Source of the DNA: Candidatus Parcubacteria bacterium
GTDB lineage: Bacteria > Patescibacteriota > Minisyncoccia > Phycocordibacterales > JAACPR01
DNA: 64,000 bases
Assembly (NCBI GenBank): GCA_009995365.1
Contig: JAACPR010000001.1
Location: 30,680-94,679 of the forward strand
Direction of reading: 5' to 3'
Shown here one piece after another: positions 18,316-48,212 of this stretch (positions are counted from its first letter, which is position 1; each line of letters starts with the position of its first letter). A model generated the notes under the pieces. The model did not search any database. It saw only the letters and a program-made list of their open reading frames with translations, and had not been told where the DNA came from. The position numbers and the translations under genes were made by a program.

Positions 18316-19011
18316 TTAGCTAAATTTAATAGGTGCTTTTTTAATTATATCTGTAATTTCATCAACATCGTCAGTTATTGTGTATAGGTTAATATCACCT
18401 TCATCAATTTTTTCATTCTGCAGCAAATTTTCTTTGATGAATTTGTCCAAGTTATTCCAATAATCTTTTCCGACTAAGATCACGGGCCTCTTTTCAATTT
18501 TTTTTGTTTGGATGAGGGTAAGCATCTCAAATAATTCGTCCAATGTTCCAAAACCACCTGGAAAATAGATGTAGGCTTCAGCAGAAAAAGCTAGACATAC
18601 TTTTCGGGTAAAGAAATAATAAAAATCGTATGAATCTGATAGATAACTATTTACTGTTTGTTCGTGTGGTAATTGAATATTTAAACCAACAGACTTACCT
18701 CCACCTTCATGAGCGCCACGGTTAGCAGCCTCCATTATTCCAAAGCTTCCACCTGTAACAACTGCATATTCTGGTAATTCTTCGACAATTTTTTTAGTTA
18801 AATTTCTAGCTAGTATATAATCTGACTCGCTTTCTAATGTTCTTGCTGATCCAAAAACAGTTACTGATTTTTGATATTTTTTTATAACCCCGAAACCGTT
18901 TTGAAATTCAGTTCTAATAAAATCAATTCTTTTGTTAATTTGTTCGTTAAGTTCGTCTAATGTAATTGTCTCGTATTCTGGCTTATGTGGCCTATTGTGT
19001 TGTGTATTCAT
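18316..19011 (-). CDS. LOG-family (TIGR00730) Rossmann-fold nucleotide-binding protein / putative cytokinin riboside 5'-monophosphate phosphoribohydrolase
   Basis: 'VFGSAR', 'VVTGGSFGIMEAANRGAHEGGGKSVGLNIQLPHEQ', 'PGGFGTLDELFEMLTLIQTKK'. Confidence 0.8.
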   Translation of the reverse strand: MNTQHNRPHKPEYETITLDELNEQINKRIDFIRTEFQNGFGVIKKYQKSVTVFGSARTLESESDYILARNLTKKIVEELPEYAVVTGGSFGIMEAANRGAHEGGGKSVGLNIQLPHEQTVNSYLSDSYDFYYFFTRKVCLAFSAEAYIYFPGGFGTLDELFEMLTLIQTKKIEKRPVILVGKDYWNNLDKFIKENLLQNEKIDEGDINLYTITDDVDEITDIIKKAPIKFS

Positions 19012-19063: not shown

Positions 19064-20389
<1,326 letters not shown>

Positions 20390-20391
20390 AA

Positions 20392-22464
20392 ATGAAAAAA
20401 TTTGATTTAAAATCAGAATATAAACCAGCAGGTGATCAACCGCAGGCAATCAAAAAACTGGTTGGAGGACTTGAAAAGGGTGATAAACATCAAACTCTTT
20501 TGGGTGTGACTGGTTCTGGAAAAACTTTTACAATGGCAAATGTCATTCAACAGGTTCAAAAACCGACCCTTGTTATTGCGCACAACAAAACTCTGGCGGC
20601 GCAATTAGCTCAGGAATACAAGGATTTCTTTCCAAACAATGCGGTTCACTATTTTGTCTCTTACTATGATTACTACCAACCTGAGGCATATAAACCTGTG
20701 ACTGATACTTATATTGAAAAAGAGGCGATGGTTAATGCGGAAATTGAGCGCCTTCGCCACGCTTCAACACAGGCACTTCTCACTCGAAAAGATGTAATTA
20801 TTGTTGCATCAGTTTCATGTATTTATGGTTTGGGTTCTCCTGAGGAATATGAAAAGGTGAATTTTAAATTTTTTAAGGGAATGAAATTATCTCGCGGTGA
20901 TTTTATTAGAAAACTTACTCATATTTATTTTGAAAGGACTAATGCAGATTTAGAGCCAGGGCAATTTCGCGCCATTGGTCAATCGGTAGAAATTATGCCG
21001 GTTTCAGAAAAATTTATTGTTCAAGTTCAATTTGATGCTGACCAAATTTCATATATTCAAAGAATCGACGGACTTAATAAAACTATTTTAGAAGAAGATA
21101 TAAAAACTTATTTTCTGTTCCCAACAAAACACTTTGTTGCTAACGAAGATGTTATAAAAAAAGCGCTTAAAAGTATCCAGAGTGAATTAGATGAGCGACT
21201 TAAACAATTAACTAAAGAAGGGAAAAATTTAGAAGCTGAGCGTTTAAAACGCAGGACTAGATATGACATGGCGATGATTCGCGAAGTTGGTTATTGTAAT
21301 GGAATCGAGAATTATTCGCGGCACTTTGATGGGCGCTTGCCCGATGAGACCCCTAACACTCTTCTTGATTATTTTCCAAAAACAAAAGATGGGAAAGCTG
21401 ATTTTCTGACAGTTATTGATGAATCTCATGTTGCGGTGCCACAGATTGGTGGGATGTATGCGGGTGATCGTTCTCGTAAAGAAACTCTTGTTGAGCATGG
21501 ATTTCGCTTGCCTAGCGCCAAAGACAACCGCCCTCTAAGGTTTGAAGAATTTGAAAAGAAAACTGGGCAAAAAATTTATACTTCGGCGACACCTGGTAAA
21601 TATGAAAATGAGAATAGCTCTATTACTGCTGAGCAAATCATTAGGCCGACAGGGCTAGTTGATCCACAAATTGAAATTAAACCAATTGTTGAAAAAGGAA
21701 AATACAAAGGTCAGGTTTTTGATTTTATCGCAGAATCAGAAAAAGAAATTAAAAAGGGAGGTAGAGTGCTTGTAACAACTTTGACTAAAAAAATGGCCGA
21801 AGATTTATCGGAATATTTGAAGGAAAAGAAAATCAAATCAGAATATATTCACAGCGATGTTAAGACGATAGATCGTATTGATATTATTTCTAATTTTCGT
21901 CGTGGTGAATTTGATATTTTGGTGGGTGTGAACCTGCTTCGTGAAGGACTTGATATGCCAGAAGTTACCATGATTGGAATTCTCGATGCTGACAAGGAAG
22001 GTTTCTTGCGTAGTGAAACTGCTCTGATTCAGACTATTGGTCGTGCGGCTAGAAATGTTGATGGAAGGGTTATTTTATATGCCGATGAAGTTACAGGTTC
22101 AATGAAGAGGGCAATTGAAGAGACGGATCGCCGTCGAACAATTCAACTGGATTGGAATAAAAAACATAATATTACACCAAAAACTATTATTAAAACTATC
22201 AAAGATATTACAGAGCAAATGAAAACTGAGCATCAAAGTGCTGTCGATACACTAATGAAAGTTGATGCCGACCTAGCCAAGAAAAACCCTGAGAAATTAA
22301 TGAAAAGAAAAGAGAAGCAAATGAATGCTGCGGCAAAAATGTTAGATTTTGAAACGGCTGCAATTTTGCGTGATGAAATCAAGCAATTAGAAGAAATCAT
22401 CAACAAAGACAAAAAAGATAAGGAGAAGGAAAAAGCTACAAAGAAAAGAAGTAAATTTAAATAA
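20392..22464 (+). CDS. uvrB: excinuclease ABC subunit B
   Basis: 'LLGVTGSGKTFTMANVI', 'FVSYYDYYQPEAY', helicase motifs, C-terminal UVR domain 'LDFETAAILRDEIKQLEE'. Confidence 0.93.
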   Translation: MKKFDLKSEYKPAGDQPQAIKKLVGGLEKGDKHQTLLGVTGSGKTFTMANVIQQVQKPTLVIAHNKTLAAQLAQEYKDFFPNNAVHYFVSYYDYYQPEAYKPVTDTYIEKEAMVNAEIERLRHASTQALLTRKDVIIVASVSCIYGLGSPEEYEKVNFKFFKGMKLSRGDFIRKLTHIYFERTNADLEPGQFRAIGQSVEIMPVSEKFIVQVQFDADQISYIQRIDGLNKTILEEDIKTYFLFPTKHFVANEDVIKKALKSIQSELDERLKQLTKEGKNLEAERLKRRTRYDMAMIREVGYCNGIENYSRHFDGRLPDETPNTLLDYFPKTKDGKADFLTVIDESHVAVPQIGGMYAGDRSRKETLVEHGFRLPSAKDNRPLRFEEFEKKTGQKIYTSATPGKYENENSSITAEQIIRPTGLVDPQIEIKPIVEKGKYKGQVFDFIAESEKEIKKGGRVLVTTLTKKMAEDLSEYLKEKKIKSEYIHSDVKTIDRIDIISNFRRGEFDILVGVNLLREGLDMPEVTMIGILDADKEGFLRSETALIQTIGRAARNVDGRVILYADEVTGSMKRAIEETDRRRTIQLDWNKKHNITPKTIIKTIKDITEQMKTEHQSAVDTLMKVDADLAKKNPEKLMKRKEKQMNAAAKMLDFETAAILRDEIKQLEEIINKDKKDKEKEKATKKRSKFK

Positions 22465-22497
22465 CGGGCGATTCAAATAATTGTTAGTTAAAATTTG

Positions 22498-22525
22498 TTG
22501 ACCAAAATTAAATTTAATATAGAAT
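22498..22525 (+). promoter_or_regulatory. sigma-70-like promoter (-35 TTGACC 22498-22503, 16-nt spacer, -10 TAGAAT 22520-22525) upstream of the NMP-kinase gene
   Basis: 'TTGACCaaaattaaatttaataTAGAAT'; followed by SD-like 'AAAGGAAA' at ~22584-22591 and TTG start at 22596. Confidence 0.4.
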
Positions 22526-22595
22526 CAAAAACTGGTCGTTCTTTTTTGGAGGAAGACTATTTCACAATAAACTCAAATCAAGCGAAAGGAAACAG

Positions 22596-23300
22596 TTGAA
22601 CGAATTAGAAAAAAGATTACTCATTGTTGTAGGTCTCACATGTGCTGGTAAAGGATACCTTCTCCAGCGTCTGATCGATATCGGAATGAAGATTCTGGAG
22701 CTCGATATGGGAGATGTTCTCAGGCACAGGAAACGAAGCGATCCTGAATTTGCCAAATTAATTTCTTCAGATCAAAATTCTGGAGGATTCTGTTCGGTAA
22801 ATATCGTCAACCAGTTGGCTGACGAAAAACTGGAACACTTCTCAAAAAGGCCTGCTGTATATCTGAGTGGTTACCCTAGAACCAAACTCCAGCTGGAGCA
22901 TCTCTTTGGATCTCCAATCTTGAAAACTCATCAGGTGTCTGTTGTTCATATAGATACCCCGCGAGAAGTTTGCAAGAAAAGGGCTTTGGCTGCTCAAAGA
23001 GGTCGGGATGATGATCACCTTGATGCAGTCAGGAGGAAATTCCGTGATTTTGATACCGAAACTTTTCCGGTAATTCAAAGACTCAAAGATGAGTTTCGAA
23101 GCTTCACATTTGATGGTCGATATACTGACCATAAACTTATGGAGTTGGTTGAAAATTTAGGTCTCCACGACCTAATTGATATCAACGAAGTCTCTGAGGA
23201 CATCAAAGAGGAATTCCACTTATGGAAATTTGCAGAAGAGCAAGAAGATGCTTTCGCGAATGACATTGAATTTCTCGGGTCCAGTGTCTATCGGAAATAA
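22596..23300 (+). CDS. short-type nucleoside monophosphate kinase (adenylate / UMP-CMP kinase family, eukaryote-like short form) with acidic C-terminal extension
   Basis: P-loop 'VVGLTCAGKGYL'; NMP-binding 'LDMGDVLR'; 'LSGYPRTKLQ'; short LID 'RGRDDDHLDAVRRKFRDF'. Start codon appears to be TTG. GC content visibly higher than flanks. Confidence 0.65.
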   Translation: MNELEKRLLIVVGLTCAGKGYLLQRLIDIGMKILELDMGDVLRHRKRSDPEFAKLISSDQNSGGFCSVNIVNQLADEKLEHFSKRPAVYLSGYPRTKLQLEHLFGSPILKTHQVSVVHIDTPREVCKKRALAAQRGRDDDHLDAVRRKFRDFDTETFPVIQRLKDEFRSFTFDGRYTDHKLMELVENLGLHDLIDINEVSEDIKEEFHLWKFAEEQEDAFANDIEFLGSSVYRK

Positions 23301-23316
23301 GTCCATGCCCATACTC

Positions 23317-23348
23317 GACACCCGCCGTAAAAAGCGGGTGTTTTTTTA
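23317..23348 (+). terminator. rho-independent terminator after NMP-kinase gene
   Basis: Hairpin 'GACACCCGC cgtaaaaa GCGGGTG' followed by TTTTTTT. Confidence 0.75.
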
Positions 23349-23457
23349 TTTACTTTTCTCTAAAAATAAGTAAAATAATCTATACATTCAAATATTTGAT
23401 ACTGACCCTGTGTCCAAAGCACCGGTTTAATATCGTGTTTTTATTTAAAATTACAAA

Positions 23458-26067
23458 ATGTCACCCAAAAAACCACAAAAAAATATAAGAAAAGATGAAA
23501 AGATTGTTATAAAAGGAGCTAGAACTCATAATTTGAAAAATGTGAATCTAGAAATACCTCGCAACAAGATGGTTATTTTTACTGGTCTTTCTGGCTCAGG
23601 AAAATCTTCTCTTGCTTTTGATACTATTTTTGCAGAAGGACAACGCAGATATGTAGAATCTCTTTCTGCTTATGCGCGTCAATTTTTAAATAAAATGCAA
23701 AAACCTGATGTCGATGAAATCCAAGGACTTTCTCCTGCAATTTCTATCGATCAGAAATCTCGTTCAAATAACCCTCGTTCAACTGTTGCGACAATTACAG
23801 AAATTTACGACTACTTACGTATTTTATTTGCTCGTGTCGGTCGCCCTCATTGTATGGAATGTGGTCGTGAAATCAAAAAACTTTCAAAAGAAGAAATTTT
23901 GAATACCGTTTTAGATCAAGTTAAAGAAATCACTTCAAAAACTTCCAAAAAAATTATGGATGTAGATATCGATCATGACACTTTGCAAATTTATTCACCA
24001 GTTGTTGTAGGAAGGAAAGGGGAATATTATCAACTGCTTTATGACATGCTCGCCAAAGGATACCAACGAGCTAAAATTGATGGAAAAGTTTATTCTCTAC
24101 GCGATAAAATTATTTTGTCTAAAACAAAAAAACATAATATCGATATTTTAGTAGATGAACTTTACTTATCTGAAATAAAATCTAAAACAGATGACGTTAA
24201 AGAAAGACTTTCTGAGGCGATCGAAAATGCAATTGAAATGTCAGAAGGGCTTTTAAAAATTATTACGAATGACGAAGAGCGCCTAATTTCCTCAAAGTTC
24301 ATGTGTCCTTATGATGGTTTTTCTTTCCCAGAAATTGAACCGAGGCTTTTTTCATTTAATTCACCACACGGTGCATGTCCTGAATGTAATGGATTAGGAA
24401 CAAAACACTTATTTGGGGATGATCCTTGTTCAGTCTGTGAAGGTAAAAGACTTCGTCCAGAAGCTATGCATGTCTTACTTCCTAATACTAAAACTAACAT
24501 TGATGATGTTACAAAGCTTTCTGTTAAGTATGCAATAGATTTCTTTTTGGAACTTGAACTTAATAAAAATGAAAAAGAAATTGCTAATGTTGTTATGAAA
24601 GAAATTACAGAAAGATTAGAGTTTATGAATAATGTAGGGATTGAATATTTAACATTGAATCGTCGCGCTCATACTCTCTCTGGTGGTGAAGCACAACGTA
24701 TTCGACTTGCTTCACAACTTGGTTCTGGTCTTGTTGGGGCGACTTATGTTTTGGATGAGCCAACAATTGGTCTACATTCTCGTGATAATGATAAATTAGT
24801 TCAAACTCTTTTAGATCTTCGCGATGCAGGTAATACAATTATTGTCGTCGAACATGACGAAGATACTATTTACGCGGGTGATTATTTAGTCGACATAGGA
24901 CCAGGTGCCGGAGTTCACGGTGGAGAAATTGTTGTTTCGGATGATATGCAAAAGCTTTTGTCTGCAAAAACTAATCCTTCAAAATCTTCAACTCTTGATT
25001 ATTTACGAGGAGATAAACAAATAGAAATTCCTGAAAAACGTCGCTCTCAAGATAAAGGTAAAATTCAAATTAAAGGTGGAAATATTTTTAATATTAAAAA
25101 TATGAATGTTGATATACCCCTTGGAAAACTAACAACGGTTACAGGTGTTTCCGGTTCTGGAAAATCTTCTTTTGTTTATGAAATTCTTTATAAAAATTTG
25201 AGAAATCGTTTTGATCGTCGCTATAGAAGTGATGTTTTAGAGAATTGTTCATCCTTAACTGGCACTGAATATTTAGGTCGAGCGATTTTAATTGATCAAT
25301 CTCCAATTGGTAGAACTCCTCGTTCAAATCCAGCAACTTATACTGGTGCTTTTACTTTTATTCGTGAATTATTTGCGGAAACTGCAGAGGCACGTGTTAG
25401 AGGTTGGAGCCCTAGTAGGTTTTCTTTTAATGTTAAGGGTGGTCGCTGTGAAGCTTGTCAAGGTAACGGATATCTTGCCGTTGAAATGCATTTTCTTCCA
25501 ACCGTTTATGTTCCTTGTGATATTTGTGAAGGTAAAAGGTTTATGAAAGAAACTTTGGAAATAGATTACAAAAAGAAAAATATTTTTGATGTTTTAAAAA
25601 TGACTGTAGAAGAAGCGCTAGCTTTTTTTGAAGATATTCCTGCTATTTATGACAGATTGAAATCATTGGATGATGTTGGTCTAGGATATTTAGAGCTAGG
25701 ACAGTCTGCAACAACTCTCTCTGGCGGAGAAGCACAACGTGTAAAAATTGCTTCGGAATTATATCGAGCGCACCTTCAGAAAACTATCTATATTTTAGAC
25801 GAGCCAACAATTGGTCTGCATTATGATGATGTAAAAAAATTGATTGAAATTTTGCAAAAATTAGTCGACAAAGGCAATACTGTTTTAGTTATTGAACATA
25901 ATATGGATCTTATTAAAAGTTCAGATTATATTATTGATATTGGACCAGAAGGCGGTGAAAACGGTGGTCAAGTTATGGTTAAAGGAACACCAGAGCAAGT
26001 TGCAGATTCTAACAAGGGATATACTGCAGAGTATCTTAAGAAGGCTTTAAAAAGAAATAAAAAATAA
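23458..26067 (+). CDS. uvrA: excinuclease ABC subunit A
   Basis: Two ABC modules: '[17 protein letters not shown]' and '[12 protein letters not shown]'; signature 'LSGGEAQR' twice; Zn-finger pairs 'CPEC', 'CEAC'. Confidence 0.93.
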
Positions 26068-26136: not shown

Positions 26137-26631
26137 ATGAATCTAGAAAAATACTATCTGACCCTACTGTTTGAAACTGTAAATTTAGTTTTTTATCGAG
26201 CTAAAATTATGCTTTCTGAAAAGTATGAAGACATAAGAACTACAGCTTTATTAAGTTTTACTCACCAGTCGCTTGCTGGTCAACCGCCAATCATCGTAAT
26301 GATGCTTGGTGAAACCATTGAAGATTCTGATAAAGTTAGCTCGTGGAGTGTTAATTCTCGAGAAAAAGCAGCGCGTCTGTGTCAAAATACAGATCATATC
26401 AGTGCTTGGCAAAGTCGCGATTTCGATAAAAAGAAATACGGCGGTGCCGTTAAAACAAGCACTGGTGAAATTCTATCCATGTCAGGACTTCCTGAATTTG
26501 GTGACGAAGCATGTTGCTTGGTCACCCTACTTTTGATGGACCGGATGGAGCTTGAAGAAGCAGAAAGGATTGTAGAGATAAGTGGTAACGATTTGTTCCA
26601 CGAACTCTACGATCGCTGCAAGATGCTTTGA
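26137..26631 (+). CDS. DUF336/GlcG-HbpS-like protein (putative haem/corrinoid-binding); an alternative ATG start at 26209 gives ~140 aa, which fits the family length
   Basis: 'YGGAVKTSTGEILSMSGLPEFGDEACCLV' resembles the GGxPI...GAIGVSG...DE motif of DUF336. GC content is elevated relative to flanks. Confidence 0.4.
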   Translation: MNLEKYYLTLLFETVNLVFYRAKIMLSEKYEDIRTTALLSFTHQSLAGQPPIIVMMLGETIEDSDKVSSWSVNSREKAARLCQNTDHISAWQSRDFDKKKYGGAVKTSTGEILSMSGLPEFGDEACCLVTLLLMDRMELEEAERIVEISGNDLFHELYDRCKML

Positions 26632-26695: not shown

Positions 26696-26731
26696 AAAGA
26701 AAAAAGTCGAGGTTTAAAATCCCTCGACTTG
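26696..26731 (-). terminator. rho-independent terminator (minus strand) for the Nudix gene; the hairpin includes the last codons
   Basis: On minus strand: 'GTCGAGGgattttaaaCCTCGAC' followed by TTTTTT. Confidence 0.6.
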
Positions 26732-27217
26732 ATTAATATCAACATCTAAAAGCTCTTTTTGTCTGTTGAAGATGATCTCTGCTTTTATTTTTTGTCCTTC
26801 GAGAATTCTAGGTAACCACAGAAGATCAGATTTAATTATCTGTCTTTTAGGTAAACGATTTATTGAATACCATTTACCTTTTTTCATTTCGCGTGTTTCA
26901 CTAGGAGTGCCGATTACATTACTTGAAATAAAAACATGGAGATTTACTCTCAATCTTTCTTCAGAAAAAAATACTAGATCAATTTCAGCAACTTTAGTTA
27001 AAAAATTCTTAACAATTTTAGCTGGTTTTGCCTCCTCGTTGAATTCACGGACCGTGGCTTCTTCAAAGGTTTCATTAAGCTTACATAATCCACCATATCC
27101 ATTTAACTTTCCGAGCATATCAACAGCTTCTTTGACATTAGTATCTGTCTTTTTCTCTGCCAAAAGGATTTTCCCATCCTTAACAACAAAGACTACGGTT
27201 TGAACTTTAGTTTTCAT
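26714..27217 (-). CDS. Nudix (MutT-family) hydrolase
   Basis: Nudix box 'GKLNGYGGLCKLNETFEEATVREFNEEA' (G-x5-E-x7-REF-x-EE-x pattern). Confidence 0.7.
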   Translation of the reverse strand: MKTKVQTVVFVVKDGKILLAEKKTDTNVKEAVDMLGKLNGYGGLCKLNETFEEATVREFNEEAKPAKIVKNFLTKVAEIDLVFFSEERLRVNLHVFISSNVIGTPSETREMKKGKWYSINRLPKRQIIKSDLLWLPRILEGQKIKAEIIFNRQKELLDVDINQVEGF

Positions 27218-29706: not shown

Positions 29707-29907
29707 ATGAAACTTAAACCTCAACATTATGATATTTTAGGTTTAGTCGTATTTCTTTTTATAGTTGGTATTGCATTTTTTGGAATCTATAACGAGCTTC
29801 AGTTACCTCAATGGGTTTTTGTTGTTCTCCTACTGATTGGAGTAGGTGGATTACTTATTGATGGCTCTATTGTTTATAATTATTTTATTAAGCGTGATAA
29901 AAAATAA
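29707..29907 (+). CDS. small 2-TM membrane protein
   Basis: 66 aa, two hydrophobic helices; its stop overlaps the ATG of the downstream Nudix gene (TAATG). Confidence 0.4.
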   Translation: MKLKPQHYDILGLVVFLFIVGIAFFGIYNELQLPQWVFVVLLLIGVGGLLIDGSIVYNYFIKRDKK

Positions 29908-30326
29908 TGTCTGCTAGTGAACCAAAACTTTTTTATATTGGGGTTAAGGCTTTAATTAAAAGAGATGGAAAAATTTTAGTTTTAAAAAGGGCGAAAAAAG
30001 ATGAGATTTATTGGGACTTACCCGGCGGGAGAATCAACAATAACGAAACACAAATAGAAGCATTGAAGAGGGAATTGGTCGAAGAGATTCCTTCAATACA
30101 AGAAATCGAAATTAAAAAAATAGTTAGTTCATGTAATTTTAATAAAGACCTAATAGGCGGCGGACTATTTTTCCTGTTTTATGATGTTAGTGCAAATACG
30201 GTACAAGTTTTATTAGGAAATGAACACTCTCAACATAAATGGATTGATCAAAAAGATCTTGATTCTATAAAAAAAGATATGTTTAGTGGTTATTATGATG
30301 CAATAAAAGCTAGTTTATTAAAATAA
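29907..30326 (+). CDS. Nudix hydrolase
   Basis: 'LPGGRINNNETQIEALKRELVEEIP' (Nudix box with terminal G->P). Confidence 0.65.
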   Translation: MSASEPKLFYIGVKALIKRDGKILVLKRAKKDEIYWDLPGGRINNNETQIEALKRELVEEIPSIQEIEIKKIVSSCNFNKDLIGGGLFFLFYDVSANTVQVLLGNEHSQHKWIDQKDLDSIKKDMFSGYYDAIKASLLK

Positions 30327-32363: not shown

Positions 32364-35225
32364 ATGCAAGAAAACAACAAAGAATACAATCATAAGAATA
32401 TAGAGCAGAAGTGGCAAAAAGCGTGGCAAGAAAATAAAACATTCAAAACTCCTGATTCGATTGAAGGGAAAGATAATTTCTACACTCTTGTAGAGTTTCC
32501 TTATCCGTCTGGCGATTTACATGTTGGTCATTGGTATGCTTTTGCTGTAACTGATATTTATGCAAAATACCAGAGGTTAATGGGCAAGAATGTTCTTTTT
32601 CCAATTGGTTTTGACGCTTTTGGTTTGCCGGCCGAGAATGCTGCCATAAAAAACAAAGTAAATCCGGATGATTGGACTAGGCAAAATATTGAATCAATGA
32701 AAAAGCAAATGGTCGCTATGGGAAATTCGTTTGATTGGGATAGAATGATTGCTACGACCGATCCGCGATATTACAAATGGACTCAGTGGATTTTTACCCA
32801 AATGTTCGAGCGAGGACTTGCTTATAAAAAGAAAGCGACGGTTAATTGGGATCCAGTTGATAAAACTGTTTTAGCTAATGAACAAGTCATGCCTGACGGA
32901 ACTGCCGAGCGCTCTGGTGCAGTAGTTGAAAAGAAAGAAATCGACCAGTGGTTTCTAAAAATTACTGATTATGCCGAGCGACTTTATGATGATTTAGATG
33001 AGCTTGATTGGCCTAGTCAGATTAAGGATCAGCAGAAAAATTGGATTGGCAAGTCCTATGGTGCAGAATTAAATTTTGATATAAAAGATTCTGCCGACAA
33101 TTCTTTTGAAGAGAAAATAAAAGTTTTTACAACTCGACCTGACACACTATTCGGAGCGACTTATGTTGTATTGGCTCCTGAAAATGAATTAATCAATACA
33201 CTTTCAGATAAAATTTCTAATATAAACGAAGTCAAAAAATACATCGAAACAGCTCGAGCAAAGACTGAAATTGAAAGGACAAAAATAGAAAAAGAAAAAA
33301 CCGGTATTAAATTAGATGGCGTTTCTGCAATTAATCCGGCAACCAAAGAAGAAATTCCGATTTTCGTTGCTGACTATGTTCTAGGTGGATACGGAACAGG
33401 CTCTGTGATGGCAGTTCCTGCACATGATGAGCGTGATTATGCTTTTGCTAAAAAGTTTGATTTACCAATTAAATATGTAATCGAGCCTATTACTGGAGAA
33501 CCACAAGAAGATGAAGAGAAAAGACAAAGCATTGTAGCCCTAGTTGAAAACCCAGAAAATGGGGAAATTTTAAGTATTAATTGGGGTGAAAAATTAGGAG
33601 GAAACTTATTAATTGGAGGCGGATTAAAAGAAGGAGAAGATCCTATAGAATGTGCAAAAAGAGAAATTATTGAAGAGACTGGTTATAAAAACTTTGAATA
33701 TATTGGCAAGACCGAGTTAATTCACCATCACTACAGAGCTCATTCTAAAAATGTAAATCGTGAGATCGATGCAATTGGTCTTTATTTTAGGTTAACTAAT
33801 TTAGAAAAAATTGAACAAAATCTAGAAGATGATGAGAAAGATAAATTTAAAGTTGAATTTATTTCAAAAGAAAAAGCAGAAAAAAATATCAAAGATCCAT
33901 TACATAATTATATCTTTAATAAATTTATTAATGAAAAAATTTATACTGATAATGGATTTTTAACTAATTCAGGGGAGTTCAACGGCTTAACTTCACAAGA
34001 AGCCAAAGAGAAAATTACAGAATTTGTTAGTGGGGAAATGAAAACAACTTTTAAATTGCGTGATTGGTCAGTAGGAAGACAGAGGTATTGGGGAACTCCT
34101 GTTCCAATCGTTTATGATCCAGAAGGAAAACCACATCCAATTCCAAAAGAGAATTTACCATGGACACTACCGGCGGATGTTGATTATACTCCAACAGGTG
34201 AACCACCGTTAGCTAAATCAAAAGAATTAAAAGAAAGAACAGAAGAAATATTTGGAAAAGGGTGGACTCCAGAGGTAGAGACTCTTGATACTTTTATCGA
34301 TTCTTCTTGGTATTTCTTGAGATATATTGATTCAAATAATTCAGACACTATTGCCGACAAGGATAAACTATCACAATGGATACCAGTTGATTTTTATTCC
34401 GGCGGAGCAGAGCATACAACTCTCCACTTGTTGTATTCTAGGTTCTTTCACAAATTTCTATCAGACATAGGTATCGTCGACACAAAGGAACCATATAAAA
34501 ATAGATTGAACCGCGGTCTTATTTCAGGGACTGACGGAAATAAAATGTCAAAATCAAAAGGTAATGTTATTAACCCCGATGAAATTGTAGAGCGTCTTGG
34601 TTCTGATACTGTTCGTCTTTACCTTGCTTTTATTGGTCCATACAACGAGCCAGGTTCATATCCATGGGATCCTAATGGTGTTGTGGGTGTTCGTCGTTTT
34701 CTAGAGAAAATATGGCGTCTTGCACAAAACAGGGTTATAGAAAATCCATCAGAAAAATCTTCTGATAAAACTATACTTGAAATTAATAAGCTTATTAAAA
34801 AAGCGCACGAAGATTATCCTGAACTAAAATTTAACACCGTCGTTGCCTCTATGATGAGTTTTCTAAATGCTACAGAAAAAGAAGAAATTTCAAAAGAAGA
34901 TTTTATAAAGTTCTTGATTGTCTTATCTCCAGCAGCTCCTCATATCTCAGAAGAATTATTTAATATAATTTCAAACACCCAAGAAACCATTTTTGATCAA
35001 AAAATTCCTGACTTTGATGAAGCAATTTTGCAAAATCAAGAAAAAATTATTGGAATTCAAATCAATGGTAAAGTCCGTGCAGAAATCGCAGTCTCAGAAT
35101 CAGAATCAGAAGAAATTTTGAAAGAAAAAATCCTTGAAATGCCAGAGATAAAGAAGTGGACAGAAGATAAAGAAATCAGAAAATTCATCTATATTCCAGG
35201 CAGAATAATAAGTATTGTCTTATAA
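32364..35225 (+). CDS. leuS: leucyl-tRNA synthetase carrying an inserted Nudix hydrolase domain (~aa 376-525)
   Basis: 'PYPSGDLHVGHWYAF' (HIGH), editing-domain blocks 'TTRPDTLFGATYVVLAPE' and 'GTGSVMAVPAHDERDYAFA', 'NSGEFNGL', 'LRDWSVGRQRYWGTPVP', 'GNKMSKSKGN' (KMSKS). Inserted segment contains the Nudix box 'GGGLKEGEDPIECAKREIIEETGY'. Confidence 0.92.
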   Translation: MQENNKEYNHKNIEQKWQKAWQENKTFKTPDSIEGKDNFYTLVEFPYPSGDLHVGHWYAFAVTDIYAKYQRLMGKNVLFPIGFDAFGLPAENAAIKNKVNPDDWTRQNIESMKKQMVAMGNSFDWDRMIATTDPRYYKWTQWIFTQMFERGLAYKKKATVNWDPVDKTVLANEQVMPDGTAERSGAVVEKKEIDQWFLKITDYAERLYDDLDELDWPSQIKDQQKNWIGKSYGAELNFDIKDSADNSFEEKIKVFTTRPDTLFGATYVVLAPENELINTLSDKISNINEVKKYIETARAKTEIERTKIEKEKTGIKLDGVSAINPATKEEIPIFVADYVLGGYGTGSVMAVPAHDERDYAFAKKFDLPIKYVIEPITGEPQEDEEKRQSIVALVENPENGEILSINWGEKLGGNLLIGGGLKEGEDPIECAKREIIEETGYKNFEYIGKTELIHHHYRAHSKNVNREIDAIGLYFRLTNLEKIEQNLEDDEKDKFKVEFISKEKAEKNIKDPLHNYIFNKFINEKIYTDNGFLTNSGEFNGLTSQEAKEKITEFVSGEMKTTFKLRDWSVGRQRYWGTPVPIVYDPEGKPHPIPKENLPWTLPADVDYTPTGEPPLAKSKELKERTEEIFGKGWTPEVETLDTFIDSSWYFLRYIDSNNSDTIADKDKLSQWIPVDFYSGGAEHTTLHLLYSRFFHKFLSDIGIVDTKEPYKNRLNRGLISGTDGNKMSKSKGNVINPDEIVERLGSDTVRLYLAFIGPYNEPGSYPWDPNGVVGVRRFLEKIWRLAQNRVIENPSEKSSDKTILEINKLIKKAHEDYPELKFNTVVASMMSFLNATEKEEISKEDFIKFLIVLSPAAPHISEELFNIISNTQETIFDQKIPDFDEAILQNQEKIIGIQINGKVRAEIAVSESESEEILKEKILEMPEIKKWTEDKEIRKFIYIPGRIISIVL

Positions 35226-40203: not shown

Positions 40204-41043
40204 ATGACTGAAATAAGACTTGTATTAAAAGCTGATGGAACAACAGAACCTTTCGATAGTTCTAAATTAAAAAATTCTTTAACCAAATCAGATGCTTCTG
40301 ATGTTTTAGCTAATGAAATAACTGCAAAAATCGAGAAAAATCTTAAAAAGGTAACGTCCACAGATGAAATTTATAAGACAGCTTATAAACTTCTGAAAAA
40401 AACCAAGAATAAAACTGCGGCTAGATATTCAATGAAAAGAACTATTTTAGATATGGGGCCAACTGGTTTTCCGTTTGAAAAGTTTGTAGCAAAGATTTTT
40501 GCAGAAAAGAAATATAAAACCATGGTAGGTATAATGTTGGACGGCTTTTGCACTGATCACGAGATTGATGTAATAGCAGAAGATGAAGATGATTTATTAT
40601 TTTGTGAAGTTAAATTCCATAATGATTTAAAAACAAAAACAGATACCCGAGTTGCTCTTTATGTAAAAGCAAGATTTGATGATTTAAAAGAAAAAGAATA
40701 CGACTTGTTCGATAAAAGAATGAAGCCCACAAAAGGGATAGTTATAACTAACACTGGTTTTACAACTAGTGCAGAAAAGTATGCTAAATGTGTTGGTTTA
40801 GGAATGATTTCTTGGGATTATCCTAAAAAAGGTAACCTATACGACCTTATTGCTGAAACTAAATTACAACCAATTACTTCTTTGACTACGCTATCTAAAA
40901 ACGATAAGAAAAGATTAATAGAAGAGGGTATAATAGTCTGCAGAGATTTACTAAGCAATAAACAAATTTTATCTACTATTGGTTTAGGTAAAAATAAATC
41001 AAATAAAATTCTTACAGAAGCTAAAGAAGTTTGCTCATATTAG
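40204..41043 (+). CDS. ATP-cone domain fused to Mrr-like (PD-(D/E)XK) restriction-endonuclease catalytic domain
   Basis: ATP-cone-like N-terminus 'IRLVLKADGTTEPFDSSKLKNSL...'; nuclease core 'FEKFVAKIFAEKKYK', 'HEIDVIAEDEDDLLFCEVKFHN' (D...E-V-K). Confidence 0.6.
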   Translation: MTEIRLVLKADGTTEPFDSSKLKNSLTKSDASDVLANEITAKIEKNLKKVTSTDEIYKTAYKLLKKTKNKTAARYSMKRTILDMGPTGFPFEKFVAKIFAEKKYKTMVGIMLDGFCTDHEIDVIAEDEDDLLFCEVKFHNDLKTKTDTRVALYVKARFDDLKEKEYDLFDKRMKPTKGIVITNTGFTTSAEKYAKCVGLGMISWDYPKKGNLYDLIAETKLQPITSLTTLSKNDKKRLIEEGIIVCRDLLSNKQILSTIGLGKNKSNKILTEAKEVCSY

Positions 41044-41067: not shown

Positions 41068-42810
41068 ATGAATTCAGAAGAAATACGAAAAAAATTCTTA
41101 GACTATTTTAAGGAAAAAGAACACGCAATATTGCCCTCGGCTTCTCTTGTGACACCAGAGGAAAAAGGAGTTACTAATTCTACGCTTTTTAATACTGCGG
41201 GTGTTCAACCTTTGGTTCCTTATCTACTAGGTGAAGAACACCCCCAAGGAAACAGGCTCGCCAGCGTTCAAAAATGCATCAGGACGATCGATATTGATGA
41301 AGTTGGAGACAATACTCATCTGACTTTCTTTGAGATGTTGGGGAATTGGTCTCTAGGCGACTATTTCAAAGAAGAAGCTATAAAAATGAGCTTCGAATTT
41401 TTAACTAGTATTGAAAAAGGATTAGGGTTAGATCCAAACAGGCTTTACATAACAGTTTTTGAAGGTGATGAAAATGCACCAAAAGATGAAGAGAGTTTTA
41501 ATATTTGGAAACAATATGTTCCGGAAAATAGAATCTATTACATGAGCGCCGACTCTAACTGGTGGGAAGCGGGTGAAAATGGTCCATGTGGCCCTGATAC
41601 TGAAATGTTTTATGATGTTAGTGGTAATTTGGGCGACTTGGATAAAGAAGCTTTTATGAAAGCAGACGAAGAACAAAAAGTTGTTGAGGTCTGGAACAAC
41701 GTCTTCATGCAGTTCGAAAAGAAAGATGGGAAAATAATAGGTAAATTACCAAGATACGCAGTTGATACAGGAGCCGGACTCGAAAGACTTCTTACGGTAA
41801 AAAACAACAAAAAAAGCATCTACGAAACTGATCTATTTTCAGAAATATTAGAAAAAATTAGAAATACAGATAAAAACAGAATTATTGTTGATCATATTAG
41901 ATCAGCTGTGATGTTGATTTCTGATGGTATTATTCCTTCAAACACAGATCGTGGTTATATTTTGCGTCGAATTATTCGTAGAGCGGTTAAAAATGCCGAA
42001 GATATAAATATTTCAGAAGTAGCAAAATTTTTCATAAACAAAATGGGCAATGCTTATCCTGATGTTAAGGAAAAAGAACAAGAAATATTAAAAACTATTA
42101 ATACAGAAGAAGAAAAATTTAGAAAAAGCTTATCATCTGGACTAAAAGAGTTTAATAAGATTTCAGATAAAAATATTTCAGGAGAAGATGCTTTTAAATT
42201 ATTTTCTAGTTACGGATTTCCGATAGAATTAACAGTAGAGTTAGCAAGAGAAAAAAATATTGAAGTTGATGTGGATTCTTTTAATGAAGAGATGAAAAAA
42301 CATCAAGAAAAATCGCGAACAGCGGCTGAAGGAAAATTCAAAGGTGGCTTGGAAAATTATGGGGAAACGGAAACTAAATACCACACTGCAACTCATCTAC
42401 TTCATCAAGCGTTACGTGATGTGCTAGGAGAGCATGTTCAACAAAAAGGAAGTAATATAAACGCAGACAGGCTAAGATTTGATTTTTCACATGACCAGAA
42501 AATGACCGACGAAGAAAAACAAAAAGTCGAAGAAATTGTAAATGAAAAAATAAAAGAATCTATACCTGTAAATAAAGTTGAGATGGATTTTGATGAGGCA
42601 GAAAAAACAGGAGCTTTACATTTCTTTGGAGATAAATATGGAGACAGAGTTTCAGTTTATTATATTGGAGACTCTATAGAATCAGCTTATTCTAAAGAAT
42701 TTTGTGGCGGACCACATGTAAAGAATACTTCTGAATTAGGAGAGTTCAAAATTAAAAAAGAAGAAGCTAGTTCCGCCGGGGTAAGAAGAATCAAAGCTGT
42801 GTTAAAATAA
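41068..42810 (+). CDS. alaS: alanyl-tRNA synthetase, compact form (catalytic, tRNA-recognition and editing domains; no C-Ala domain)
   Basis: 'HLTFFEMLGNWSLGDYFK', 'WNNVFMQFEK', 'DTGAGLERLL'; editing 'HTATHLLHQALRDVLGEHVQQKGS', 'CGGPHV'. 580 aa versus ~870 typical. Confidence 0.85.
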   Translation: MNSEEIRKKFLDYFKEKEHAILPSASLVTPEEKGVTNSTLFNTAGVQPLVPYLLGEEHPQGNRLASVQKCIRTIDIDEVGDNTHLTFFEMLGNWSLGDYFKEEAIKMSFEFLTSIEKGLGLDPNRLYITVFEGDENAPKDEESFNIWKQYVPENRIYYMSADSNWWEAGENGPCGPDTEMFYDVSGNLGDLDKEAFMKADEEQKVVEVWNNVFMQFEKKDGKIIGKLPRYAVDTGAGLERLLTVKNNKKSIYETDLFSEILEKIRNTDKNRIIVDHIRSAVMLISDGIIPSNTDRGYILRRIIRRAVKNAEDINISEVAKFFINKMGNAYPDVKEKEQEILKTINTEEEKFRKSLSSGLKEFNKISDKNISGEDAFKLFSSYGFPIELTVELAREKNIEVDVDSFNEEMKKHQEKSRTAAEGKFKGGLENYGETETKYHTATHLLHQALRDVLGEHVQQKGSNINADRLRFDFSHDQKMTDEEKQKVEEIVNEKIKESIPVNKVEMDFDEAEKTGALHFFGDKYGDRVSVYYIGDSIESAYSKEFCGGPHVKNTSELGEFKIKKEEASSAGVRRIKAVLK

Positions 42811-42815
42811 TAGCA

Positions 42816-43943
42816 ATGTTCAATAACAAAAAAGATACTTCAAAAACTTCAAAAAAAATCGATTTAATATTTGATATTAGAAATTCTAGCGCTGGTTTGG
42901 GAGTTGTTGAAATTACAAAAAATGAAAGGGTTATAATTTACACAAATAGAAGATATTCTAATCCTTCTGTAGTAAGAGATGTAAAAACTTTTGAAAAACA
43001 GATAGAAAAGATAACTGATGATTTAATCGAAGATTTCATTATTTTTAAAAAAAAGAACAACATTAGACAAATTCTTAATGTTAACTGTGTTTTCTCTGCT
43101 CCTTGGTATGAGGCAGATATTAATAACCTAACTTTTAAAGAAAATAAAAAAACTAAACTCACAGAAAAATATTTAGATCAAAAAATTGAAAAAGGTGATA
43201 TTAATGATGAACTAGAAAGTGTTGAAAACAATTTATTATCGGTTTCTTTGAATGGATATGAAACCGAAAATCCATTCGGGAAAACTTTTACGAGTATTGA
43301 GTTGAGTTTCTATAAAAGTTTTATAGATAAAGAAAACAAAATAAAACAAAAAATAGAAGATAAAATTAATCCCAATAAGCTAAATGTCCACACCCACCCG
43401 TTTGTAATTCTGAGTGTTTTGAGGGCAAATTTTCACAATGTAAATAATTTTTCTTTATTTGATATTGGTGGAGAAATGACAGAAATATCAATATTTAAAA
43501 ACTCAATATTAAAAGAACTAATAACTTTACCTACTGGTTTTAATTCAATAATTAGAAATATTTCCAAAACAACAAACGATGAGCAAATAACAATATCGAA
43601 AATAAAAATGTTAAATTTGAATCAAATAAATGATGACGAATTGTTAGAAAAAATAAACTCTAATATAGAAGCGTGGCTAGAGACAACCAAGAAAATATTA
43701 AATTCAAATGAAATTCAATTACCAAATGATTTTTTTATAGCCATAGATAAAGATTATAAAAAATTAATAAAAGATATATTAAGCAAAAAGGACTTTTATT
43801 CAATGATTTTAAATAAAAACAGGCAACCAAATATAAGAATACTAGACTCAATTGATCAAAAAAATCTAGCCGTATATGCAAAAAATGTTAACAGAGATCC
43901 TTTGATTTCAATTATTTATAATTTTTCAACAATTGAAATTTAA
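42816..43943 (+). CDS. hypothetical actin-like ATPase (ASKHA superfamily; PilM/FtsA-like?)
   Basis: 'IDLIFDIRNSSAGLGVVEI' (phosphate-1-like), 'FSLFDIGGEMTEISIF' (phosphate-2 'DIGGGTT'-like). Confidence 0.4.
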   Translation: MFNNKKDTSKTSKKIDLIFDIRNSSAGLGVVEITKNERVIIYTNRRYSNPSVVRDVKTFEKQIEKITDDLIEDFIIFKKKNNIRQILNVNCVFSAPWYEADINNLTFKENKKTKLTEKYLDQKIEKGDINDELESVENNLLSVSLNGYETENPFGKTFTSIELSFYKSFIDKENKIKQKIEDKINPNKLNVHTHPFVILSVLRANFHNVNNFSLFDIGGEMTEISIFKNSILKELITLPTGFNSIIRNISKTTNDEQITISKIKMLNLNQINDDELLEKINSNIEAWLETTKKILNSNEIQLPNDFFIAIDKDYKKLIKDILSKKDFYSMILNKNRQPNIRILDSIDQKNLAVYAKNVNRDPLISIIYNFSTIEI

Positions 43944-43968
43944 AAAAATCTGTTATTATATATAAGAT

Positions 43969-45267
43969 ATGGATAAAAAAAATATACAAGACGTTGTTCC
44001 GCCAACACAAAGAAAATCAATTAGAAATATTCCTATACCAAATAGGAGTAACAAGAACGGAGAAATTAAAAGGAACACTCCACCAATACACAAAAAAGAA
44101 GAATTTGATTTTGAAGAAAGAAACACCAGACCTAGAAAAAACAATATTAAAAAATATTTTATATTAATAGGTTCGGTGGTTACTTTAATTTTATTATTTG
44201 TTGTATTTTCAAGCTTTACTAGTGCAACAATAAAAATAAAACCAAAAATAGAGTCATCCACATTTGACGAGAGAATGGTTATAGAAGATTTATCAACAAG
44301 AGAGAATAATGAATCATTAGGCTATAGAATAATTGAATTAGCTAAAGAATCAGAGAAAATAGTCGAGGCCCAAAACGAAGAACTTGTTCAAGAAAAAGCA
44401 TCAGGGGAAATAACTATTTTTAACGAATACTCAGAAAGCAACCAAACACTTATAACAAATACTAGATTTGAATCAGAAGATGGAAAAATATATAGAATCC
44501 AAGAATCTATTAGTGTTCCTGGATATACAGAATCAAATGGAGAAATAATACCTGGCCAAATAACAGCAACTGTATATGCAGACGAAGAAGGAGAAGAATA
44601 CAACTTAGAATCTGGAGATTTCACAATACCAGGCTTTAAAGGGCAAGAACCTTACGACTTTTTCTATGCAAAAACAGAGACAAGTATAAGCGGCGGATTT
44701 GATGGAGTCAGGAGAATAGTATCAGACGAAGATATAGAACTGGCAACCACAGAATTACAAGAAGACGTCAGAAATAAACTACTACAAGAATTAAACGAAC
44801 AAATAACAGAAGAATTCTATATTCATCAAGATGGAGATTCTTTTTCTTTTGATAATATAGAACAAGAACAAATAGAAAACAGTGAAAATGTTAAATTAAA
44901 ACTTAGAGGAAAAATATCAGCAAAAATATTTAACAAAGTGGATATATCAAATAAAATAGCAGATAATATATTTGCCAATTATTTCTCAAATGAAAATACT
45001 CTGATTGAAAATTTTGAAAATATTGAATTTTCAATTTCAGAAAATGATCTTTCTGAGATGTTAAACGCTTCAGGAAATTCTAATTTCATTTGGCAAGTTG
45101 ATGAAAACAAACTAAAAGAAGACTTGATAGGAATAGAAAAAAACCTTCTTTCTACTGTAATGCAAGACTATACTGAAATCCAAACAGCAGAAGCAGTAAT
45201 CAAACCATTCTGGGTTTCTAGCTTCCCACAAGAAAAGAAAAAGATAAAAGTTGAAATTGTTAGGTAA
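43969..45267 (+). CDS. hypothetical bitopic membrane protein with large acidic extracytoplasmic domain
   Basis: Basic N-terminus, one TM 'YFILIGSVVTLILLFVVF', ~350-aa D/E-rich C-terminal domain. Confidence 0.4.
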   Translation: MDKKNIQDVVPPTQRKSIRNIPIPNRSNKNGEIKRNTPPIHKKEEFDFEERNTRPRKNNIKKYFILIGSVVTLILLFVVFSSFTSATIKIKPKIESSTFDERMVIEDLSTRENNESLGYRIIELAKESEKIVEAQNEELVQEKASGEITIFNEYSESNQTLITNTRFESEDGKIYRIQESISVPGYTESNGEIIPGQITATVYADEEGEEYNLESGDFTIPGFKGQEPYDFFYAKTETSISGGFDGVRRIVSDEDIELATTELQEDVRNKLLQELNEQITEEFYIHQDGDSFSFDNIEQEQIENSENVKLKLRGKISAKIFNKVDISNKIADNIFANYFSNENTLIENFENIEFSISENDLSEMLNASGNSNFIWQVDENKLKEDLIGIEKNLLSTVMQDYTEIQTAEAVIKPFWVSSFPQEKKKIKVEIVR

Positions 45268-45316: not shown

Positions 45317-45538
45317 ATGAATAGTTCAAACAAACAAGAAGAACAAGTAGAAGGAGTTGTAACGGAAGCTCTACCCGAGGCCATGTTCAAAGTTTTGATT
45401 GATGGCGCGGAAGAAGAGGTCCTTGCATACTTGGCTGGAAAAATGAGGATGTATAGAATCCGCGTTTTGGTCGGAGACAGAGTTCTACTTAAAACAGACC
45501 CTTACGGAGGTAAGGCTATAATTTATAAAAGAATTTAA
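45317..45538 (+). CDS. infA: translation initiation factor IF-1
   Basis: S1-like OB fold '[59 protein letters not shown]'. Confidence 0.88.
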
Positions 45539-45540
45539 AC

Positions 45541-45654
45541 ATGAAAGTAAAATCATCAGTAAAAAAGAAATGTCCAAATTGTAAAACTGTTCGCAGGAAG
45601 GGTAAGCTTTATGTTGTCTGCTCAAATCCTAGACATAAACAAAGACAAGGATAA
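45541..45654 (+). CDS. rpmJ: 50S ribosomal protein L36 (not in the supplied ORF track; 37 aa)
   Basis: Translation '[37 protein letters not shown]' (C-x2-C...C-x4-H Zn ribbon), between infA and rpsM. Confidence 0.9.
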
Positions 45655-45700
45655 CTCGCTTTACTTTTTAAACTATATTTGATAAATTTTCACCCACTAT

Positions 45701-46081
45701 ATGAGATTATTAGGAATAACTTTACCAGACGAAAAAAGACTAGAGATTGCTCTAACGGTTGTTTATGGTATCGGAAGAAAAAAAGCAAAAGAAATTTTAG
45801 TCAATGCAAAAGTCGATCACGGTAAAAAAGCAAAAGACGTAACACAAGCAGAAGAAACTAAAATAAGAAACGAAGTTGAAAAATTAAAATTAGAAGGTGA
45901 CCTTAAAAGAGAAATATCTGGTAACATCAAAAGACTAAAAGATATCCAGGCATACAGAGGATCAAGACATGCAAAAAGACTACCTTCACGCGGACAAAGA
46001 TCAAAAACAAATTCCAGAACAGTCAGAGGTAATGTTAGAAAAACTATGGGATCTGGTAAGAGATCAGTTGAAAAGAAATAA
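45701..46081 (+). CDS. rpsM: 30S ribosomal protein S13
   Basis: 'ALTVVYGIGRKKAKEIL', 'LEGDLKREISGNIKRLKDIQAYRGSRH'. Confidence 0.9.
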   Translation: MRLLGITLPDEKRLEIALTVVYGIGRKKAKEILVNAKVDHGKKAKDVTQAEETKIRNEVEKLKLEGDLKREISGNIKRLKDIQAYRGSRHAKRLPSRGQRSKTNSRTVRGNVRKTMGSGKRSVEKK

Positions 46082-46090
46082 TAATTAACT

Positions 46091-46519: not shown

Positions 46520-46523
46520 TATT

Positions 46524-47132: not shown

Positions 47133-47208
47133 TAATAGCTATCTTGTCTAGGATTGAAAAAGTTGGTATAATTCAACAACATTTTATAAGTTTAACCAAA
47201 TAATAAAA

Positions 47209-48171: not shown

Positions 48172-48212
48172 GGGCTTTACAAAAATGAATTAAACTGATA
48201 GTCTTATCAACC

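Follow-up and report, generated by a model that had tools for sequence, protein, structure and literature searches.

Short-type adenylate kinases (AKs; M. tuberculosis 2CDN, vertebrate AK1, Pfam PF00406) and UMP-CMP kinases (TIGR01359; 2UKD, human 1TEV) are the closest described relatives of a gene found between uvrB and uvrA in a Candidatus Parcubacteria bacterium. The sequence analysed, referred to below as the window, comprises 64,000 nucleotides of contig JAACPR010000001.1 (assembly GCA_009995365.1, positions 30,680 to 94,679, forward strand). The gene (22596..23300, +) starts with TTG, encodes an ADK-fold kinase of 234 aa and is the sole convincing gene between uvrB (20392..22464, +; Pfam UvrB/UvrB_inter/Helicase_C/UVR on the identical gene) and uvrA (23458..26067, +; Pfam UvrA_inter/ABC), the conserved left and right flanks of its slot. 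With moderate confidence, the kinase is read here as a low-abundance (deoxy)nucleoside monophosphate ((d)NMP) kinase paralogue that is carried as a recombining allelic cassette.

The kinase shares with short-type AKs the CORE, the NMP-binding domain and the short LID (template-modelling (TM) scores of 0.83-0.88), together with equivalents of the P-loop Lys, Arg36, Arg88, Arg119-123 and the LID arginine, the DD pair and the adenine-reading Gln. It is unlike them in its P-loop (GLTCAGKGY), in DMGD, which replaces STGD, in a LID (R-x5-R-G-R-DDD) 2-3 residues shorter than that of AK1, in an acidic extension of ~47 aa and in overall sequence, identity to short AKs being 18-26%. The slot kinases further differ from these enzymes in their weak start, hypervariable sequence and fixed uvrB-uvrA site, which is not the spc operon. 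Canonical bacterial Adk differs in position, as the window kinase does not lie in the secY-adk-map-infA order of the spc/alpha cluster. Among NCBIfam models, the UMP-CMP kinase model TIGR01359 gave the best score (64.7 vs a cutoff of 207.6); fold and profile scores to UMP-CMP kinases were comparable, and the Cys before the first LID arginine is found in human UMP-CMP kinase also. UMP-CMP kinases carry Asn at the base-specificity position (GFPRNxxN), where the window kinase, like AKs, has Gln (GYPRTxxQ).

At the level of the locus, comparison is by analogy with allelic cassette or hotspot loci between core genes, such as the pneumococcal capsule locus (dexB-aliA) and defence-island hotspots. 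Conserved flanks, sharp breakpoints, divergent alleles and incongruence with the species tree are common to both. The present locus differs in holding a single small enzyme-fold gene, always of the same superfamily, within a conserved regulatory frame, and in having no mobility genes and no match to a known defence family.

Kinase alleles in the uvrB-uvrA slot

The kinase of the window and its direct relatives (T1) amount to 6-9 clusters among 5.8 billion protein clusters. Four members were returned by a word-indexed search of these clusters and six by a profile search, after which scores fell from at least 239 bits to at most 87 bits; the lower matches were ordinary bacterial AKs of 180-200 aa. 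An exhaustive HMMER scan of 1.84 billion representative proteins added P0007 and two fragments (P0034 and P0035). The other cluster members were the same proteins under different start calls, with L or V in place of M as first residue or a start 9 codons further upstream, which, with a nearly clonal population, made close relatives unsuited to an estimate of selection. No close homologue outside the clade was present in either collection. Scanning of GTDB species genomes with T1 peptide patterns found none; the wider family alignment (A2) was too divergent for pattern search.

Every T1 member with readable context adjoined uvrB at its 3' side and, with the sole exception of L012, lay directly 5' of uvrA. 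In L012, a minus-strand gene for an NT5C-family 5'(3')-deoxyribonucleotidase and a gene for a 195-aa P-loop protein of unknown family (L012:1889-3162) follow the kinase and form a small nucleotide-metabolism cluster beside it. Each of the 11 lineages that make up the clade had an ADK-fold gene in the slot, and this conserved arrangement speaks against the recent foreign acquisition first proposed. A UvrB scan of GTDB yielded 64 Paceibacteria/Parcubacteria loci, 47 with a co-oriented uvrB-to-uvrA pair; most of the other 17 end soon after uvrB. The gap between the two genes in these loci (L019-L082) ranged from 74 bp to 5.1 kb. Outside the clade it contained unrelated cargo, comprising a recurrent set of an Ig-like protein of ~930 aa, a HisKA/HATPase histidine kinase and a response regulator, and elsewhere FIST, PaaX-like (PaaX_M), DoxX and unknown proteins. 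The gap is a permissive, variable site, that is, an integration or variation hotspot, and the kinase is its clade-specific occupant. The kinases thus form an ADK-fold family, marked by an unusual P-loop, mini-LID and acidic tail, that has its constant place between uvrB and uvrA in a single clade of the ultra-small Paceibacteria.

A second ADK-fold type (T2), which forms a small family of its own (P0267-P0271), occupied the same slot of syntenic contigs (L019, L099 and L101). T2 kinases are like T1 in their slot, in the surrounding frame of promoter, leader, Shine-Dalgarno (SD) site and terminator, in mostly non-ATG starts, in raised G+C at third codon positions (GC3), in the ADK Pfam match and in a tail motif. 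They are unlike T1 in their P-loop (GPPTAGKG), shorter NMP-binding region and length of ~200 aa, and they lack the long acidic extension. L019, the closest GTDB relative, carries T2 within the same regulatory frame. The T2 model was AK-like at moderate confidence; the NMP-binding region of T2 has a deletion of 9 residues, and four of the five members carry Asp or Glu at the position that corresponds to Arg36. The two types gave an hhalign probability of 1.9% and were as distant from each other as from any AK.

Flanking genes of T1 and T2 carriers were closely similar. UvrB was 92% identical between the window (T1) and L101 (T2), and 97% identical over 332 aa between L012 (a T1 subtype) and L099 (T2). 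The two types were interleaved on a neighbour-joining (NJ) distance tree of UvrB, built without a topology test, on which L007 (T1) was the outgroup; at least three switches are therefore needed. In blastn alignments of the window with L101/L102, identity was 83% through uvrB to 22546, no similarity was detected to 23317, and identity was 81% from 23318, a right breakpoint within the terminator stem, into uvrA. The exchangeable cassette, defined by this loss of DNA similarity to the T2-bearing sister, spans 22547..23317 (+) and coincides almost exactly with the island at 22470-23350 to which the first-pass annotation had drawn attention. Alignment of L012 with L099 gave the same breakpoint pattern, with flanks 86-87% identical.

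Within the shared 20 kb, conservation was lowest in the kinase coding sequence (CDS), with 63-65% DNA identity against 73-82% for the intergenic DNA on either side of it; where flanks and intergenic regions together were 62-89%, mostly 70-88%, identical, the CDS was at 60-68% or unalignable. The kinase most similar to that of the window (62%) was that of L007, the most distant species (UvrB 76%), and the kinases of L010 and L012 were 28% identical where UvrA was 94% identical. For UvrA, the main members of the clade shared 85-94% of amino acids with one another and 77-79% with L014. These comparisons showed a non-vertical history for the kinase, whose CDS behaves as an exchangeable allele within a conserved regulatory frame. 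Alleles would be replaced repeatedly through homologous recombination, for which uvrB and uvrA would provide strongly conserved arms, and/or be under strong diversifying (or balancing) selection.

No mobility gene or integrase was found in the slot, which contains a single open reading frame (ORF). A 16-nt AT-rich direct repeat (14/16) at 22471-22486 and 23386-23401 brackets the kinase unit, with its second copy in the conserved uvrA leader, and is probably due to chance. As a target-site duplication it was rejected, since it is the only such repeat and its first copy is not conserved in relatives.

Regulatory frame and composition of the kinase unit

A sigma-70-like promoter of the kinase unit, TTGACC-16-TAGAAT, was located at 22498..22525 (+; 10 of 12 consensus matches). 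The pattern TTGAC[CG]-N17-TAGAAT was kept in L007, L010, L012 and L019 despite saturation of synonymous sites in neighbouring genes (synonymous divergence (dS) of 0.9-1.6 or more). The promoter is followed by a 5' leader with conserved sequence blocks (22526..22595, +), which includes the box CAAAAACTGGTCNTTGTTCTTT and ends in the SD site AAAGGAAA at 22585-22592; an SD site GAAAGGAA and an early-transcribed box were kept upstream of the kinase across the clade. Neither a consensus RNA fold nor an Rfam match was obtained for this leader, and an RNA structure or riboswitch there was rejected on these grounds. The start codon was non-ATG (TTG or GTG) in 7 of 7 T1 members, compared with ATG at 55 of 57 starts in the window. 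A Rho-independent terminator at 23317..23349 (+) consists of a 9-bp GC-rich stem (23317-23342) and a T-run (-15.8 kcal/mol), and a hairpin with T-run was kept at this position in all eight lineages, with compensatory changes in the stem. With its promoter, conserved leader, SD site, TTG start and terminator, the kinase segment is a self-contained, monocistronic, terminator-insulated unit; each of the promoter-like, SD-like, start and terminator elements listed in the first-pass annotation was thus found in place.

The anomalous composition of this unit was likewise borne out. G+C content of the kinase ORF was 41.6% vs 32.9% for the window (z = 2.65; 0.16% of 705-bp windows equally high). Its GC3 was 0.383 vs a mean of 0.230 (z = +3.4), the highest of 55 window genes, and its synonymous-codon likelihood (z = -3.5) was the least typical of the same 55. 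Of the codons originally named as enriched, CTC (10 of 28 Leu codons vs 3.8% in the background) and CTG (5 of 28 vs 4.9%) were so, and CGT (2/18) and GGC (0/13) were not; the Arg codons AGG, CGA and CGG were enriched as well. Three antisense ORFs of at least 60 aa cross the segment in the six-frame track, as had been pointed out as a sign of high GC. Conservation of these ORFs was looked for in the orthologues and none was found, so that they are a by-product of composition. Its rare codons and the persistence of a non-ATG start make low-level synthesis of the kinase probable.

The kinase gene and its context recurred in nine independent assemblies with 0-5 single-nucleotide differences per ~8 kb, and the locus is therefore not an assembly artefact; the population sampled was nearly clonal. 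In most lineages, T2 included, GC3 of the cassette was 0.27-0.41 vs 0.15-0.22 for the 5' end of uvrA. The anomaly therefore belongs to the cassette pool and not to a recent event.

Recent import of a foreign island from a eukaryote or virus, as first suggested, is largely refuted and highly improbable. Atypical GC and codon usage would fit such an import, as would a short-type AK fold, which is typical of eukaryotic AK1 and UMP-CMP kinases too. Against it stand the lack of a close homologue outside the clade in the two protein collections, the retention of slot and regulatory frame in all relatives, the persistence of the anomaly in orthologues across saturated synonymous divergence, and a locus with no mobility genes and a sole flanking repeat that is not conserved. 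The epithet 'eukaryote-like' gains no specific support, because the best structural match was bacterial (M. tuberculosis 2cdn) and the nearest outside sequences were ordinary bacterial AKs; the top HMMER scores of eukaryotic appearance were sums over multi-domain proteins with 3-7 ADK domains. A phage-type origin fared no better. The PHROG scan gave no family (marginal only, E 0.0039 to a terminase), a single phage record matched at 24% identity, IMG/VR held none, and viral AK models in BFVD matched no better than cellular ones. What survives of the proposed horizontal acquisition is replacement of alleles within the clade, where a vertical phylogeny was not found. The unusual GC and codon usage reflect the cassette and the separate history that it has had, and do not point to recent import from eukaryotes or phages. 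As the locus illustrates, an 'island' that stands out in GC and codons can be a recombining allele of long residence, which matters for the calling of horizontal gene transfer in genomes of the candidate phyla radiation.

Fold, active site and role of the kinase

The Pfam ADK model (PF00406) matched residues 11-164 of the kinase with 53.6 bits (gathering cutoff 26.8), and the same family was carried by all slot kinases of the relatives. An AF2 model computed from the family alignment was confident (mean predicted local distance difference score (pLDDT) 88.2, predicted TM score (pTM) 0.83). Foldseek ranked M. tuberculosis Adk 2cdn first, then Dictyostelium UMP/CMP kinase 2ukd, then AK3 and fish AK1, with target-normalised TM scores of 0.81-0.88 and E values of ~1e-10 to short AKs and UMP/CMP kinases. 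The original call of a short-type NMP kinase is upheld by these matches. The NCBI name is merely 'AAA family ATPase [Candidatus Parcubacteria bacterium]'. As a test for canonical bacterial Adk, the kinase was scored against NCBIfam NF001381, TIGR01351 and others, and with all 20 adk models it fell far below cutoff (62.4 vs 187; 57.7 vs 168). The kinase is a lineage-restricted paralogue with a short-type ADK fold.

Motifs of the kinase are the P-loop GLTCAGKGY, DMGDVLR, GYPRTKLQ, RGRDDDHLDAVRRKFRDF and the mini-LID KRALAAQRGRDDD. Against the canonical P-loop G-x-P-G-x-G-K-G-T, Pro is changed to Thr, Gly to Cys and the final Thr to Tyr; GLTCAGKGY was invariant in four close T1 members and variable in distant ones. 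In alignments to hidden Markov models (HMMs), K19, R43, R95, R129, R135, R137, D139/D140 and K148 aligned with catalytic positions of E. coli Adk (K13, R36, R88, R119/R123, the LID Arg, R167 and the LID Asp pair being compared), and these residues are conserved in the family. R43, G63, G92, R95, Q99, C126, R129, R137 and D139 were invariant across the wider family, as was K19 where the N-terminus was present. Gln99 is the equivalent of Gln92 of E. coli Adk, the adenine-reading residue.

By homology, Lys19 of the P-loop and Arg129, Arg135 and Arg137 of the mini-LID, with Asp139 and Asp140, would hold the phosphates of ATP, Arg43 and Arg95 would hold the phosphate of the acceptor nucleoside monophosphate, and Gln99 would read an adenine-type base. 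The predicted reaction is ATP + (d)NMP <-> ADP + (d)NDP, with AMP or dAMP the most likely acceptor.

The acidic C-terminal extension reported at the outset (~50 aa) was delimited to residues 188-234 (23157..23297, +; ~47 aa, isoelectric point 4.25, 13 D/E vs 4 K/R). According to the pLDDT profile, residues 188-210 are confidently modelled and residues 220-234 are disordered. A conserved F/Y-[DE]-L-W block lies in the first part of the extension. The second part contains DIEFLG (23262..23279, +), an instance of a motif [DE]-F-[LMI]-G that is common to T1 and T2, with F226 invariant in the T1 alignment. T1 examples are DIEFLGS, SDFIGSG and TDFMGDF; T2 examples are HDFLGVQ, TDFMGDL, YDFMGDF and SEFL-end. 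In both types the C-terminus is an acidic stretch bearing this motif, a region predicted to be disordered in T1 and T2 models alike. We infer a short linear motif that would bind a conserved partner, and the disordered acidic tail ending in it most plausibly docks the kinase there.

Several points weigh against a low-abundance accessory kinase carried as a recombining cassette. Three residues of the P-loop do not fit GxPGxGKGT, among them the equivalents of Pro9 and Gly10 of E. coli Adk, and activity could therefore be impaired. Given the deletion and the Arg36 loss in T2, the two types may be functionally non-equivalent. No recombination tracts were seen in the uvrB/uvrA flanks at 100-aa resolution. 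T1 subtypes might formally also have arisen through lineage-specific bursts of in-situ divergence, omega being ~0.5-1 on some branches with dS saturated. The NUDIX and thioredoxin-like neighbours are fast-evolving too (41-61% identity), so rapid divergence alone is not unique to the kinase gene. Sorting of ancestral tandem paralogues is possible; the idea of a tandem T1 and T2 ancestor found no support in L012, whose 195-aa P-loop gene shares the P-loop alone with T2. Finally, none of the 11 lineages has an empty slot, which an indispensable function would explain more readily than an accessory role.

This last point leads to the possibility, considered unlikely, that the gene is the clade's only adenylate kinase, a housekeeping adk that left the spc operon, settled between uvrB and uvrA and diverged or was replaced there. 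The ADK HMM found just the slot gene, and no second ADK-like ORF, in the 64-kb window, in the relatives' loci and in 10 kb downstream; a tblastn search with E. coli Adk was too insensitive for this purpose. The territory covered, ~74 kb, is ~10% of the genome if a typical size of 0.6-1 Mb is assumed. The first-pass annotation had remarked that no adk precedes infA (45317). None does, and secY and map are not there either: upstream of infA stand alaS and two genes for hypothetical proteins of 375 and 432 aa (41068-45267), so the ribosomal cluster is simply broken there, with the alpha-operon genes infA, rpmJ, rpsM, rpsK, rpsD, rpoA and rplQ at 45317-48563 and the usual spc-alpha linkage lost. 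The absence of a preceding secY-adk-map would agree with a relocated adk, as would the P-loop GPPTAGKG of the L019 type (T2), which is nearer the canonical motif. However, a weak start (TTG or GTG) that persists among T1 members and codon usage further from the norm than in any other window gene are the opposite of what is expected of an abundant housekeeping enzyme. Scores far under every NCBIfam adk cutoff, kinase identities as low as 28% beside a UvrA at 94%, and the loss of the Arg36 equivalent in T2 also argue against it.

Parcubacteria are reported to be without de novo nucleotide synthesis and to lack most NMP kinases other than adk (mostly cmk, gmk and tmk), whereas adk is well represented among them (PMC4508563); an adk is thus expected somewhere in this genome, a further point for the relocated housekeeping gene. 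The NMP kinase activities that Parcubacteria lack might be supplied by ADK-fold paralogues that have diverged and carry altered acceptor sites.

The association with uvrB and uvrA, together with the shared C-terminal motif, leads to the testable idea of a repair-linked nucleotide kinase. As an accessory of nucleotide excision repair (NER), the enzyme would be tethered through its motif to a repair protein, be it UvrA, UvrB or another, and its task would be either local regeneration of ATP or renewed phosphorylation of the dNMPs that excised oligonucleotides release. The kinase gene is strictly found together with uvrB and uvrA, without exception among the members, which agrees with such a role. 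So does the presence of [DE]-F-[LMI]-G on otherwise unrelated-looking T1 and T2 kinase domains, which suits binding to a highly conserved partner, as do nearby nucleotide-salvage genes (LOG, two NUDIX and tgt in the window, NT5C in the L012 slot). Yet the kinase has its own promoter and terminator, so that co-transcription with uvrA is not obligatory, and the same gap in ~40 other Paceibacteria is empty or holds unrelated cargo, from which adjacency may mean no more than a permissive site. A basic C-terminal tail of UvrB was rejected as the clade-specific partner of the acidic kinase tail, as it is not specific to kinase-bearing lineages. A role in NER is accordingly rated as rather improbable.

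Slightly lower still is the probability given to a component of genetic conflict, that is, a toxin-like, defence or counter-defence P-loop kinase with alleles under diversifying or frequency-dependent selection. A CDS less conserved than the non-coding DNA around it, discrete unalignable alleles interleaved among sister species, expression apparently kept low and a weak Pfam Zeta_toxin match of the L019 protein (24 bits) are consistent with conflict. Searches of T1, the T1 subtypes, T2 and the hypothetical gene downstream of uvrA gave no PADLOC match, no PHROG family was obtained, the monocistronic slot has no antitoxin or immunity partner gene, and T1 keeps the full set of AK catalytic residues, all of which count against it.

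A polymorphic-kinase locus, in which the conserved frame and the docking motif present interchangeable and rapidly diversifying ADK-fold domains to a conserved partner (possibly UvrAB, the single-stranded-DNA-binding protein or the replisome) and conflict (phage or host-symbiont) or balancing selection drives their turnover, is a speculative extension and would not be the expected outcome. If true, such a locus would be previously undescribed, and a fold seen as strictly housekeeping would have been put to use as a hypervariable module. For the recombining cassette itself, what matters is that a housekeeping-type fold behaves as a hypervariable cassette in which conservation of the CDS falls below that of the adjoining promoter, leader and terminator, a pattern usually tied to surface, defence or toxin loci.

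Other features of the window

Downstream of the kinase terminator, a promoter-like site of uvrA, TTTACT-16-TAAAAT, lies at 23349..23376 (+), in a block TTTACTTT...AAAAATAAGTAAAAT that is conserved in relatives. The uvrA 5' leader contains a hairpin, CCTGTG-TCCAAAG-CACCGG (23407..23425, +), for which the leaders of 17 Paceibacteria show covariation. Across distant Paceibacteria (the window, L019-L080), a hairpin recurs 4-39 nt before the start of uvrA, with the consensus (A)ACC-stem-loop-stem-GG(C)GTT, in which the stem sequence varies and pairing is kept. Pairing was observed in 81.5% of cells vs 64.1% in shuffles (0/500 shuffles reached this value), and the covariation score was 0.472 vs 0.202 (0/500; slid controls at most 0.18), for leader windows that had been chosen by folding them. 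The hairpin had no Rfam match. Its 3' arm overlaps an SD-like GGAGG in several lineages, which suggests that the hairpin may control translation of uvrA.

In single assemblies of the same species, uvrB (L104:7797-9869) and likewise hisS (L103:2779-4014) are split in two genes, probably through frameshifts or assembly errors in otherwise near-identical sequence.

Directly 3' of uvrA, a hypothetical gene of 164 aa (hyp164; 26137-26631, +) has the second most atypical codons of the window (GC3 0.34, z = -2.9). No Pfam, PHROG, PADLOC or PDB match was obtained for it. It is 58% identical in L008, other cargo takes its place in L010, and its site may be a second variable slot flanking uvrA.

Nucleotide-salvage or sanitation genes surround the uvr genes: a LOG family gene (Lysine_decarbox/LDcluster4; 18316-19011, -), two NUDIX hydrolases (26714-27217, -, and 29907-30326, +) and tgt (19070-20389, +). 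The NUDIX gene at 26714 is very fast-evolving (41-51% identity between relatives). A leucyl-tRNA synthetase-like gene (32364-35225, +; 953 aa) has a NUDIX match (PF00293) between tRNA-synt_1 segments, which may be a domain insertion. A protein of 279 aa (40204-41043, +) combines an ATP-cone, an Mrr_cat restriction-endonuclease-like domain and an AF1548-like C-terminal domain in an unusual architecture, and is possibly a nucleotide-sensing nuclease.

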